From the NCBI GenBank assembly GCA_030615205.1, contig JAUWZS010000001.1, positions 209,492 to 273,491 on the forward strand: a DNA stretch of 64,000 nt, in the 5' to 3' direction. Positions 42,270 through 54,308 of the stretch are shown in pieces (position 1 is the first letter of the stretch; every line of letters begins with the position of its first letter). Source of the DNA: Candidatus Aenigmatarchaeota archaeon (lineage in GTDB: Archaea; Aenigmatarchaeota; Aenigmatarchaeia; CG10238-14; SCSR01). The notes under the pieces are model-generated. The model searched no databases and was not told the DNA's origin. It saw only the letters and a list, made by a program, of their open reading frames with translations. Position numbers and translations under genes: made by a program.

Positions 42270-42439
42270 ACTTGAGAATCCATAGCTCCAATTGGCGCAC
42301 TTAACATACTAAATATATTTTAAACCCGTCAGAACAAATAATTATTGGTTAACTATCACTAGTATAATCAACTTCGCAAACAAAAACATGAAAACAAATT
42401 TAAGTCACAACATTCTATTTATTCATTACGTAAATTCAC

Positions 42440-51734: not shown

Positions 51735-52088
51735 TTAGAAAAACTCCTTAACTTTTTCTGTTCCTACTCTTGATTTTTCAAGTGCGTTAAGATAATGCCA
51801 ACCATCTTCAGTAGTTGTATATATTGCTTTTATCTGTCTATCCTTTTTTTCACTTGTATCGCCGCAAAGTCCTTCAAGTTGAAAAACTGGTCTCTTATCC
51901 TTTCCTTTTTTTCCGTAATAAGGGTTTTCCTCTTCATACAAAAAACCAGCGCCTACAAGTGCCTCAAGGTATTTAACAATCTGCAGACCACTAAGGCTAC
52001 ATTTGTGCATAATAGAGGTCTTTGTTTTCCCTTTTCTTGCTTCGGCTAGAACATCTTCTATAATTTTATCTCTTGACCTATATCTCAT
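51735..52088 (-). CDS. winged-helix protein (HTH_45-like)
   Basis: RSRDKIIEDVLAEARKGKTKTSIMHKCSLSGLQIVKYLEALVGAGFL. Confidence 0.5.
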   Translation of the reverse strand: MRYRSRDKIIEDVLAEARKGKTKTSIMHKCSLSGLQIVKYLEALVGAGFLYEEENPYYGKKGKDKRPVFQLEGLCGDTSEKKDRQIKAIYTTTEDGWHYLNALEKSRVGTEKVKEFF

Positions 52089-52124
52089 TTTTTATATAAC
52101 GAATATTAAACTTTTAAACCCTTT

Positions 52125-52187
52125 CCAAAGAACAAATAACTTCTCTGGCTCATTTGATTTGAAGAAAACTTAAAAGACTTAAATTTG
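52125..52187 (+). repeat. copy 1 of ~50-nt conserved intergenic hairpin element
   Basis: ccaaAGAACAAATAACTTCTCTGGCTCATTTGATTTGAAGAAaacttaaaAGACTTAAATTTG. It carries a 9-nt internal duplication relative to copies 2 and 3. Confidence 0.85.
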
Positions 52188-52193
52188 TTTTTT

Positions 52194-52475
52194 ATGGATA
52201 TTATTTCTATGATGAAAGGAAAAAAACATCTAACAGCTCAGACCACAGCACACATGACCGATGAAGAGATTGATCAATATTTGTTAGATCTTTTGCCAAT
52301 GACGCGATCTGAAATCTATGGACAATTTGGGGCCGATTGGAGTGCCGCAAGGAGGACTAAAAAAAGAATTAGAACTCGATTAAACGCTTTAATGGATGAG
52401 GGAATGATATATGCAACGGGTAGGGTTAGTGGTTTAACGTATCATAAGAGAAAAAAACATCAAGAAAGCATTTAA
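52194..52475 (+). CDS. hypothetical protein, possible wHTH
   Basis: The ATG at 52194 is preferred, because the TTG at 52185 lies inside the repeat element. RTRLNALMDEGMIYATGRVSGLTYHK is wing-like. Confidence 0.4.
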   Translation: MDIISMMKGKKHLTAQTTAHMTDEEIDQYLLDLLPMTRSEIYGQFGADWSAARRTKKRIRTRLNALMDEGMIYATGRVSGLTYHKRKKHQESI

Positions 52476-52491
52476 TATTATTTCAATTTTT

Positions 52492-52545
52492 CTCAAAGAA
52501 CAAATAACTTCTTCGGTTCATTTGATTGAAGAAGATTTAAATTTG
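52492..52545 (+). repeat. copy 2 of the conserved intergenic hairpin element
   Basis: ctcaAAGAACAAATAACTTCTTCGGTTCATTTGATTGAAGAAGATTTAAATTTG. Confidence 0.85.
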
Positions 52546-52575
52546 TTATCGTCAATTATAATAACAGATGATTTG

Positions 52576-53703
52576 ATGGTTGATCCCAGAGATATACAAT
52601 TGGCAGAGTTGCTAGTTGATTATTCGATTGAATTGAAACCTGGAGAGAATGTTTGTTTATTAACTGATTCTGTTCAAACTATGCCGTTATTTCGTGAAGT
52701 CTATAGAGCAATAATATTTGCTGGTGGTTATCCGTATCCTCATGTCGAATTAGACCCTCATATAGGATGGGAAGGAATGGATCCTATATGGATGGACTGT
52801 GCTTCTGATGAACAGATAAGACATCTCTCTCAACTTAGACTTGATGAAATGAAAGCTATGGATGCTTATATAAGAATTGGCGGTCCTGCTAACAAATTCG
52901 AGTTGGCTGGTATTGATGAAAAAAGGACTGCCTTAAGGAAGAGAATAACTAAACCCATACTAGATGAAAGATTGGGCAAGAAATGGGTAACTACAAGATA
53001 TCCAGTTCCATCAATGGCCCAGGCAGCGAGGATGTCAACTGTAGATTTTGCTAACTTCTTCTACGGTGCCTGTTTAGTAGATTGGAATGAACAAGAAACA
53101 TTACAAGAAAGGATAAAGAAAAGGCTTGAACAAGGCAAAGTCATAAGAATTCTTGGTGAGGATACTGACCTTTATATTGGTATTGAAGGTAGGAAATTTA
53201 AGAAATCTTTTGGAAAATGCGTATATAACCCAGATACTGGAAAATTTGAAGGCGCCAACATGCCTAGCGGGGAACTGTATTGTGGTCCAGTTGAAGACTT
53301 TACCCATGGCCATATTAAATATACTTATCCTTACAACAAGGATGGAAAGAGGATAGAAGGTATATTCTTAAAGTTTCAACATGGAAAAATTGTTGATTTT
53401 AAAGCTGAAAGAAATGATATGGCTTTAGCGACCCTTTTGAACACAGACCCTGGAGCCAAGCGTTTGGGGGAACTTGGGATCGGGACTAACCCAAATATAA
53501 CAGACTTCATGGACGAATTGTTATTTGATGAAAAAATACTTGGTACAGTACATGTAACACCTGGAAGATCATATAAAGGTTGGGGAAAAAATGAATCAGC
53601 AATACATGCAGATATTGTAAAGGATTTAAGGCCAGAACACGGCGGTGGAGAGATCCAGGTTGATGGTGAAACTATTCAGAAAAATGGAAAATGGGTCTTT
53701 TAA
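52576..53703 (+). CDS. aminopeptidase, M29 (AmpS/PepS) family
   Basis: LAELLVDYSIELKPGENV N-terminus. The ~375-aa length and the GELGIGTN...HVTPG motif are typical of M29. The ATG at 52576 is preferred, because the TTG at 52522 is inside repeat copy 2. Confidence 0.65.
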   Translation: MVDPRDIQLAELLVDYSIELKPGENVCLLTDSVQTMPLFREVYRAIIFAGGYPYPHVELDPHIGWEGMDPIWMDCASDEQIRHLSQLRLDEMKAMDAYIRIGGPANKFELAGIDEKRTALRKRITKPILDERLGKKWVTTRYPVPSMAQAARMSTVDFANFFYGACLVDWNEQETLQERIKKRLEQGKVIRILGEDTDLYIGIEGRKFKKSFGKCVYNPDTGKFEGANMPSGELYCGPVEDFTHGHIKYTYPYNKDGKRIEGIFLKFQHGKIVDFKAERNDMALATLLNTDPGAKRLGELGIGTNPNITDFMDELLFDEKILGTVHVTPGRSYKGWGKNESAIHADIVKDLRPEHGGGEIQVDGETIQKNGKWVF

Positions 53704-53710
53704 TAATTCT

Positions 53711-53764
53711 TCTTAAGAACAAATAACTTCTTTGGCTCATCTGATTTGAAGAAGACTTAAATCT
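53711..53764 (+). repeat. copy 3 of the conserved intergenic hairpin element
   Basis: tcttAAGAACAAATAACTTCTTTGGCTCATCTGATTTGAAGAAGACTTAAATCT. Confidence 0.85.
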
Positions 53765-53796
53765 TTAACCATCTTTATATTTGATAAGATGATACA

Positions 53797-54036
53797 ATGG
53801 CACCAACTGCATATGTTCTGTATAATGCAGACGCTACCAAAAAAGCCCAAAAGGGAGCTTTGGAAGCTGTCAGAAATGTCCAAGGTGTTGAATATGCACA
53901 TCCAACCGACGGGGTCTATGATGGTATTGCAAAAATCACAGAAAATACTATGGATAAATTAAAAGAAAGAACCGCGGCCGTACGTAGACTTGATACAGTA
54001 AGCACGACATTAACGATGATAAAAATAGAAGGGTAA
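53797..54036 (+). CDS. stand-alone Lrp/AsnC-type ligand-binding (RAM) domain protein
   Basis: 79 aa. MAPTAYVLYN...VQGVEYAHPTDGVYDGIAKI...VSTTLTMI fits the beta-alpha-beta-beta-alpha-beta RAM pattern. Confidence 0.5.
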   Translation: MAPTAYVLYNADATKKAQKGALEAVRNVQGVEYAHPTDGVYDGIAKITENTMDKLKERTAAVRRLDTVSTTLTMIKIEG

Positions 54037-54068: not shown

Positions 54069-54308
54069 ATGGCCCCGAGTGCGTATCTGGTATATAATAC
54101 AGAGATTGGAGCTCAAAACGAAGTTACGGATGATATCAGAAAAGCTAAAGGTGTTGAATACGCACATGCGTTCTATGGTATCTACGATGGCATTGCAAAA
54201 ATTAACGCAGATAGCATGGCTCAATTAAAACTAAGAGTTAATACCATACGTAAAACTGATAAGATGGTATCATCATTAATGATGATAGTAATAGAAGAAC
54301 AGAAATAA
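54069..54308 (+). CDS. stand-alone Lrp/AsnC-type ligand-binding (RAM) domain protein, tandem paralog
   Basis: 79 aa. MAPSAYLVYN...AKGVEYAHAFYGIYDGIAKI. It shares the upstream sequence GATACAATGGC with the preceding gene. Confidence 0.5.
   Translation: MAPSAYLVYNTEIGAQNEVTDDIRKAKGVEYAHAFYGIYDGIAKINADSMAQLKLRVNTIRKTDKMVSSLMMIVIEEQK

Follow-up and report, generated by a model that had tools for sequence, protein, structure and literature searches.

A repeated promoter element with a putative upstream protein-binding site in a small DPANN archaeal genome

Why should three consecutive genes of a small archaeal genome each be preceded by nearly the same sequence? The locus that raises this question lies in a 64,000-nt window (the whole stretch of DNA under analysis; C29:209492-273491) of the Candidatus Aenigmatarchaeota genome labelled G000, a DPANN assembly of 1.17 Mb with 38.6% G+C that is 88.5% complete. 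How DPANN archaea regulate their genes is, to our knowledge, very poorly understood. The region of study covers window positions 52100-53800, and all coordinates of the element are window positions. The three genes encode a rare 88-amino-acid (88-aa) protein, an M29 aminopeptidase and the first of two tandem RAM-only proteins, and a winged-helix gene of the HTH_45 family diverges from the first of them. A first-pass annotation of this DNA had described the repeat as a hairpin, and had offered a shared promoter and operator module, a mobile repeat or a 5'-leader RNA motif as explanations. On the basis of current results, the 3' end of each copy is a core promoter, and the part upstream of it may be a site at which a protein binds double-stranded DNA, a reading to which we give about as much belief as doubt.

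The three copies and their core promoters

The element is a sequence of ∼48 nt that occurs three times on the + strand, with one copy directly 5' of each of the three + strand genes, as had been annotated. Its parts and the promoter box facing it are as follows:

52128-52184, + strand: copy 1, with box 1 (AAGAACAAATAA) at 52128-52139 and ATTTGATT at 52152-52159
52170-52175 and 52179-52184, + strand: the TATA-like hexamers TTAAAA and TTAAAT of copy 1
52496-52542, + strand: copy 2, with CTTCTTC at 52508-52514, GAAGAAG at 52528-52534 and TTAAAT at 52537-52542
53715-53762, + strand: copy 3, with CTTCTT at 53727-53732, AAGAAG at 53749-53754 and TTAAAT at 53757-53762
52113-52118, - strand: TTTAAA, the promoter box of the HTH_45 gene that diverges from copy 1, lying 30 nt ahead of the start codon of that gene (ATG 52088)

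The degenerate 32-mer AAGAACAAATAACTTCTYYGGYTCATYTGATT matches all three copies (at 52128, 52496 and 53715), with no match expected from shuffled sequences, and a repeat search gave 73-90% ungapped identity among them. The genome-wide search that had been proposed as a check was run on the whole assembly both by pattern and by nhmmer: with ≤3 mismatches only the three known sites matched, and the nhmmer E-values of the copies were 8e-16, 9e-15 and 1e-13, the next best match having an E-value of 0.7. A partial copy previously noted at 42331 is a chance match, the 11-mer in question occurring 9 times with one mismatch (4.6 expected) and giving no nhmmer match. Beyond this assembly, the three-copy form had no match by pattern search in 70 genomes of the host's family (0.4-1.7 Mb in size), and no element was found when collections of metagenome and genome contigs were scanned for the exact pattern. 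Two pattern matches in viral contigs, both within one coding gene, were dismissed as chance. Copy 1 contains a 9-nt internal duplication (AACTTAAAAG / ACTTAAAT, 52161-52184), which gives it two TATA-like hexamers 9 nt apart.

In archaea, the TATA hexamer is A/T-rich and lies at ∼-26 to -30, counted from the transcription start or, in a leaderless gene, from the ATG. We tallied hexamers 5' of the first ATG in 906 long open reading frames (ORFs), a crude gene set, and found that TTAAAT was enriched at -30..-26 (46 of 172 occurrences, 19 of them at -29). A second, smaller group of TTAAAT hexamers was located near -37, in genes with GTGAT at -10..-6. Genome-wide, the bases directly 5' of the hexamer follow the consensus A(-4) R(-3) A(-2) Y(-1), and the three copies, which end in AAGAC-TTAAAT, AAGAT-TTAAAT and AAGAC-TTAAAT, all fit this B recognition element (BRE) with AGAC, AGAT and AGAC. 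Their TTAAAT hexamers (52179, 52537 and 53757) lie at -30 from ATG 52209, at -39 from 52576 and at -40 from 53797, and Shine-Dalgarno-like GATGAT precedes the latter two starts. These position statistics show that the last ∼12 nt of the element (AAGAY-TTAAAT) are the genome's consensus BRE/TATA, with the hexamer at a fixed distance and the purine-rich BRE directly 5' of it, and the 3' end that had been called TATA-like occupies a genuine TATA-type position. In both respects, and in the spacing (-29 for leaderless genes, ∼-37 to -40 for genes led by a Shine-Dalgarno sequence), the copies resemble archaeal core promoters in general. The core is ordinary; unlike such promoters, however, these three neighbours have ∼36 further upstream bases in common. 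Since the consensus of other promoters in the genome ends by -6 from the hexamer and none could be observed farther 5', this 36-nt module is special to the element's promoters.

Promoter spacing also bears on the start codons. Both TTG-extended ORFs (52185 and 52522) extend into the element, as had been claimed, and one of the two starts suggested in their place, 52576, is supported by the TATA spacing and confirmed by homologues that begin with MVDP. The other, 52194, is not confirmed, because this ATG is only 15 nt past the hexamer and would lie 5' of the transcript start. The evidence favours 52209, from which the assembly's own gene call also starts the 88-aa product (P0121); a homologue on the related contig L039 has the same TATA-to-ATGATG distance as the window. 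On its other side, copy 1 is sandwiched between its own TATA box and that of the divergent HTH_45 gene. An independent promoter 5' of the copies was rejected for its inconsistent spacing: AT-rich boxes lie 35, 26 and 16 nt 5' of the copies, with no consistently placed TATA among them.

Gene turnover, constraint and related motifs

Two short related contigs, L039 (728 nt; ENA ERZ936102) and L040 (1937 nt; ENA ERZ27275891), could be compared with the locus. The order in L040 is the end of an M29 gene, a copy with a conserved 5' half, a gene for a 200-aa protein, a full copy and two RAM genes; the full copy is the orthologue of copy 3 (nhmmer E 2e-13), and the 200-aa gene has no homologue in the window's genome. 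L039 contains a 96-aa homologue of the small protein, one element-like spacer and a RAM gene, and M29 is absent between them. To its left and right this spacer is flanked as copies 2 and 3 are, but of the module it has the 3' half only. Single genes come and go exactly at the copies, which form direct repeats bracketing genes that are absent in relatives (M29 when compared with L039, and the 200-aa gene in L040). As the copies are direct repeats, we propose that recombination between them, or insertion at them, added or removed single genes here. The L039 spacer also carries a duplication comparable to that of copy 1 (GAAAAGGTAAAGAAGG).

The M29 gene itself was probably acquired horizontally from outside the family, judging from its protein relationships. 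Its product is ≤40% identical to any M29 in the 70 family genomes. Identity is higher with metagenomic proteins (66-77%) and with a Bathyarchaeota protein (65%), the genes of which lie in surroundings that lack synteny; a related-locus search with the M29 protein returned no close relatives. A family-typical M29 paralogue is located 100 kb away (G000:C29:363066-363953) and is 30% identical. M29 relatives in unrelated contexts keep a core promoter and leader of the form ...AAGTTAAATCT...AATTATAATAA...GATGATTT-ATG, without the upstream module.

The element is conserved above near-neutral sites. Between the window and L040, 71 of 76 positions of the element plus leader are identical, compared with 52 of 70 four-fold sites of M29 (Fisher p 0.0025), and for the element alone the count is 39 of 42 (binomial p 0.002-0.025).

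An all-against-all comparison of intergenic regions revealed further repeats that, like the element, contain AAGAACAAAWAA and ATYTGATT. A pattern combining these two strings occurs 5 times in the genome and not at all in five simulated genomes. Iterated nhmmer searches identified 11 copies of a ∼34-nt motif, CC(A)AGAACAAAAATCTATCTGATTCGGGTTGAT (core GAACAAAAATCTATCTGATTC), and a sequence-only covariance model, whose E-values are rough, identified 13. Two of the seven best non-self matches of the hidden Markov model (HMM) built from the three copies are members of this family on the same strand (probability ∼2e-6), and the link between the family and the three copies is thus not post hoc. The members are located as follows:

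G000:C26, - strand: 138785-138832, 139236-139268 and 139882-139914, family copies
G000:C26: 234325-234352, 244873-244902, 245235-245267, 246326-246356, 246873-246904, 324239-324269 and 324543-324574, family copies
G000:C29: 165581-165609 and 166365-166393, family copies

These sites are found in divergent, tandem and convergent intergenic regions, and with respect to genes they may point either way. Copies that belong to one local cluster are co-oriented, which holds for all five clusters (p ∼0.002). In three divergent regions the motif lies between two TATA boxes, ∼10 nt from each. Another genus (G048) has an exact match to the 22-mer core, G012, G050 and G064 have matches with 1-3 mismatches, and family copies often adjoin tRNA 3' ends in G048, G012 and G050. 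The covariance model found six copies in G048, two in G043 and one weak match in each of ∼18 other genomes. No base pairs (0) were obtained in the consensus structure of the family. The upstream ∼36 nt of the element are related to these motifs, as a local variant of a ∼34-nt unstructured gene-boundary motif family.

Readings of the upstream module

The reading that we favour, if with evenly balanced confidence, is that of a shared promoter joined to an upstream protein-binding site on double-stranded DNA. Each copy would then be a complete promoter cassette, with its TATA box 30 nt before the leaderless start 52209 or 39-40 nt before the Shine-Dalgarno-led starts 52576 and 53797. The upstream ∼36 nt (AAGAACAAATAAC...ATYTGATTTGAAG), which end ∼10 nt before the TATA box, would act as double-stranded DNA and carry a protein site, either an operator or an upstream activating site, and the HTH_45 gene, the 88-aa gene, the M29 aminopeptidase and the RAM-only pair would come under common control. 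Among the explanations first offered, the shared promoter and operator module is the one best supported: its promoter half follows from the position statistics, and we infer the operator half from conservation and from the placement ∼10 nt 5' of the TATA box. A function at the level of DNA is consistent with the lack of a consistent fold, with the occurrence of the family in either orientation relative to genes and with the motif placed between two TATA boxes in three divergent regions, and the divergent winged-helix gene beside copy 1 also counts for a binding site. Sites directly upstream of the BRE have been described for the archaeal activators Ptr2, LysM and Ss-LrpB (PMC2995911), and the module's position just 5' of the BRE, which fits that of such sites, was counted in favour as well. 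The likeness to Lrp-type activator systems extends to the genes, as the locus encodes a peptidase and RAM domains of the amino-acid-sensor type. Unlike the sites of such activators, however, the module does not contain the 13-15-bp abcdeWWWedcba palindrome with an A/T centre that marks operators of Lrp/feast-famine regulatory proteins, and no gene for a full-length Lrp/AsnC protein, which would bind as a dimer, was detected in the genome.

Several observations weigh against a regulatory binding site. The core promoters are already consensus-like, and an activator is not obviously needed; for the same reason, repression by blocking transcription factor B (TFB) is equally possible. In the 88-aa protein, no fold of a DNA-binding kind could be detected. 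When the 5' 28 nt of the element are taken alone, 26 of 28 positions are identical to L040 and constraint is marginal (p 0.014-0.07). As for the wider family, approximately a quarter of its copies are located between convergent genes, where no promoter is expected, and its patchy spread among related genomes fits poorly with a conserved regulon. In G048, moreover, the family flanks a DEAD-box helicase gene and a GTPase gene, the orthologues of which are not flanked in the window's genome.

If the binding-site reading is correct, a defined 36-nt module common to four promoters, close to a winged-helix gene and two stand-alone RAM genes, would make up a compact candidate regulon, and could reveal what RAM-only proteins are used for in a genome that lacks full-length Lrp. 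Should the module be only a duplicated promoter, the finding would be ordinary. In either case, the motif family and the gain and loss of genes at the copies bear on how tiny genomes acquire foreign genes and wire them in.

The main rival, possible if somewhat unlikely in our judgement, is that the copies are attachment-like junction repeats. Single genes, each bringing its own promoter or acquiring one, would have been slotted in at the element by site-specific or homologous recombination, duplicating the site each time, and the similarity of the copies would reflect history instead of a regulator. It should be noted that this is compatible with a protein-binding site, as the two are not exclusive. 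The gene differences described above fit such a process: L039 joins the 96-aa homologue directly to the RAM gene where the window has M29 between copies 2 and 3, L040 has its 200-aa gene between a copy resembling the 5' half and a full copy, and M29 appears to be foreign. The co-orientation of the family within its clusters and its position at tRNA 3' ends in three other genomes point the same way. However, no integrase, recombinase or tRNA target was found at the locus; no integrase lies within 130 kb, the nearest on this contig being at C29:397879. Copies 2 and 3 differ by scattered substitutions without an arm/core pattern, purifying selection acts on the element between lineages, and the genes flanked in G048 are housekeeping genes. 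Archaeal attachment (att) direct repeats and integron attC arrays also have co-oriented repeats at every gene boundary of a small array and genes that are present or absent between the repeats in related contigs. The element differs from them in that it lacks a nearby integrase, attC-type cores (RYYYAAC / GTTRRRY) and a hairpin, its copies carry promoters, and its relatives flank housekeeping genes. An integron attC array in particular was rejected, as the cores are lacking, nothing folds and the nearest tyrosine recombinase is >130 kb away.

A bolder variant, which we regard as unlikely, is that the element and its family are promoter-carrying cassette boundaries of a DPANN gene-capture system that is integrase-less or unrecognised. 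If this were true, the recombination site would itself supply the TATA promoter, and foreign genes such as that of the M29 peptidase would be expressed and co-regulated on arrival.

We regard it as quite unlikely that the copies are dispersed intergenic repeats of a selfish or neutral kind, like repetitive extragenic palindromic (REP) sequences or miniature inverted-repeat transposable elements (MITEs), three of which became fused to promoters by chance and have no host function. The wider family does offer 11-13 copies in any kind of intergenic region, patchily present across related genomes (with the exact 22-mer in another genus) and not conserved at orthologous positions. Nevertheless, no terminal inverted repeats, target-site duplications or palindromic structure could be observed, no transposase was identified, copies are few and non-randomly oriented within clusters, and the element is conserved above neutral sites. 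Bacterial REP sequences and bacterial interspersed mosaic elements (BIMEs) are likewise short, intergenic, multi-copy and clustered, but the element's family is non-palindromic, has far fewer copies and is co-oriented instead of alternating. Thus, of the mobile hairpin first suggested, neither the hairpin nor the copy number of the three-copy form holds, whereas a dispersed family exists and the copies bracket gene insertions, which leaves room for some mobility or recombination.

We consider it very unlikely that the module works as RNA, either as a hairpin in the 3' untranslated region of the upstream gene (a terminator or stabiliser) or as a long 5' leader bound by a regulator. Copy 2 does fold at -13.5 kcal/mol (z-score against shuffles -2.92), copies 2 and 3 come 20 and 12 nt after the stop codons of the preceding genes, and the L039 spacer keeps a 9-bp A-U/G-U stem in the same place with different bases. 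On the other hand, copy 1 has no upstream + strand gene and is unfolded (z-score +0.71), the proposed stem being broken; copy 3 forms the stem weakly (z-score -1.19) and, like the L039 spacer, folds no better than shuffles; and the L040 copy prefers a different fold. The longest perfect inverted repeats in copies 1-3 are 5, 7 and 6 bp, lengths reached by 74%, 8% and 21% of mononucleotide shuffles. The CTTCTT/AAGAAG arms of the annotated hairpin are accordingly within chance, with only copy 2 folding better than shuffles. A T5 tract precedes copy 2, which also speaks against an RNA, the wider family has no consensus structure, no conserved secondary structure with covariation was found, and Rfam gave no match on the element either at the gathering threshold or at E≤1. 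Because the TATA box is 3' of the module, the resulting transcript does not include the module; this, together with the lack of a consistent upstream TATA, disfavours the 5'-leader motif proposed at first. On the favoured reading, the module is not an RNA hairpin. Two further RNA candidates were rejected, namely an H-type pseudoknot (CAAAU/AUUUG interleaved with CUUCUU/AAGAAG), for which copies 1 and 3 have no linker and copy 3 breaks one stem, and a C/D-box small RNA, for which there is no C box and CUGA occurs in copy 3 only.

Neighbouring genes and other repeats

The genes around the element, including the leader of the first RAM gene, are as follows:

51735-52088, - strand: HTH_45 winged-helix protein, 117 aa (Pfam PF14947, E 3.5e-10), a candidate local regulator divergent from copy 1
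52209-52475, + strand: member of a very rare protein family, 88 aa, with a probably leaderless start at ATG 52209
52576-53703, + strand: M29 aminopeptidase, 375 aa, with copy 2 on its 5' side and copy 3 on its 3' side
53763-53796, + strand: TATA-to-ATG stretch of the first RAM gene, with the dyad CTTTAT-N5-ATAAAG and Shine-Dalgarno-like GATGAT
53797-54036 and 54069-54308, + strand: two tandem 79-aa RAM-only (AsnC_trans_reg) genes, E 3e-4 and 4e-6

All of the small neighbours had been named as candidate regulators. The Pfam match bears this out for the HTH_45 protein, and the RAM matches do so weakly for the two RAM-only proteins. For the small protein no family or fold could be detected: it has no Pfam family and no homologue in 371 genomes of the phylum, its AlphaFold2 model is of poor quality, with a pLDDT of 61.6 and no Foldseek match below E 1.8, PDB sequence searches were empty, and hhalign against its HTH_45 neighbour gave a probability of 0.7%. 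Among 1.84 billion representatives, five belong to its family. To us its sequence pattern nonetheless looks winged-helix-like. In L039 (25-634), the 96-aa homologue is directly followed by the RAM-only gene. The rare 88-96-aa protein and the RAM-only protein may be the DNA-binding part and the sensor part of one regulator, encoded separately.

All RAM-domain ORFs of the genome are short, and the only other RAM-like match is a GYD-type protein on a G+C-rich contig. The region of that gene (G000, C19:36000-38200) far exceeds the remainder of the assembly in G+C content and may be a bin contamination.

Between its TATA box and its ATG, the first RAM gene shows almost no variation among four lineages, whereas the RAM proteins are only 49-67% identical (49% for L041). 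The counterparts of this stretch are as follows:

L040:1389-1422: RAM leader
L039:367-400: RAM leader
L041:1372-1409: RAM leader, with the dyad CCTTAT-N5-ATAAGG

We see in this dyad, which would lie over the transcription start, a candidate operator for a repressor. A TrmB-type TGM motif in the leader was rejected, as GTGATA there is Shine-Dalgarno context.

Two other sets of repeats were observed on C26 of the same genome. Strings resembling tRNA 3' halves (CGCCCAGGGTGGGAGTCATCGGCTTGAGGTGGATTTTGGTG) occur at the boundaries of the DEAD-box helicase and GTPase genes (G000:C26:218620-218660, 220350-220400 and 221290-221340). Another intergenic repeat, ATTCCTAACTCTTGAGAATTAAAAAAAGAAAAAGA, has three copies that are 94-100% identical within 7 kb (G000:C26:180848-180896, 182482-182515 and 187898-187944).

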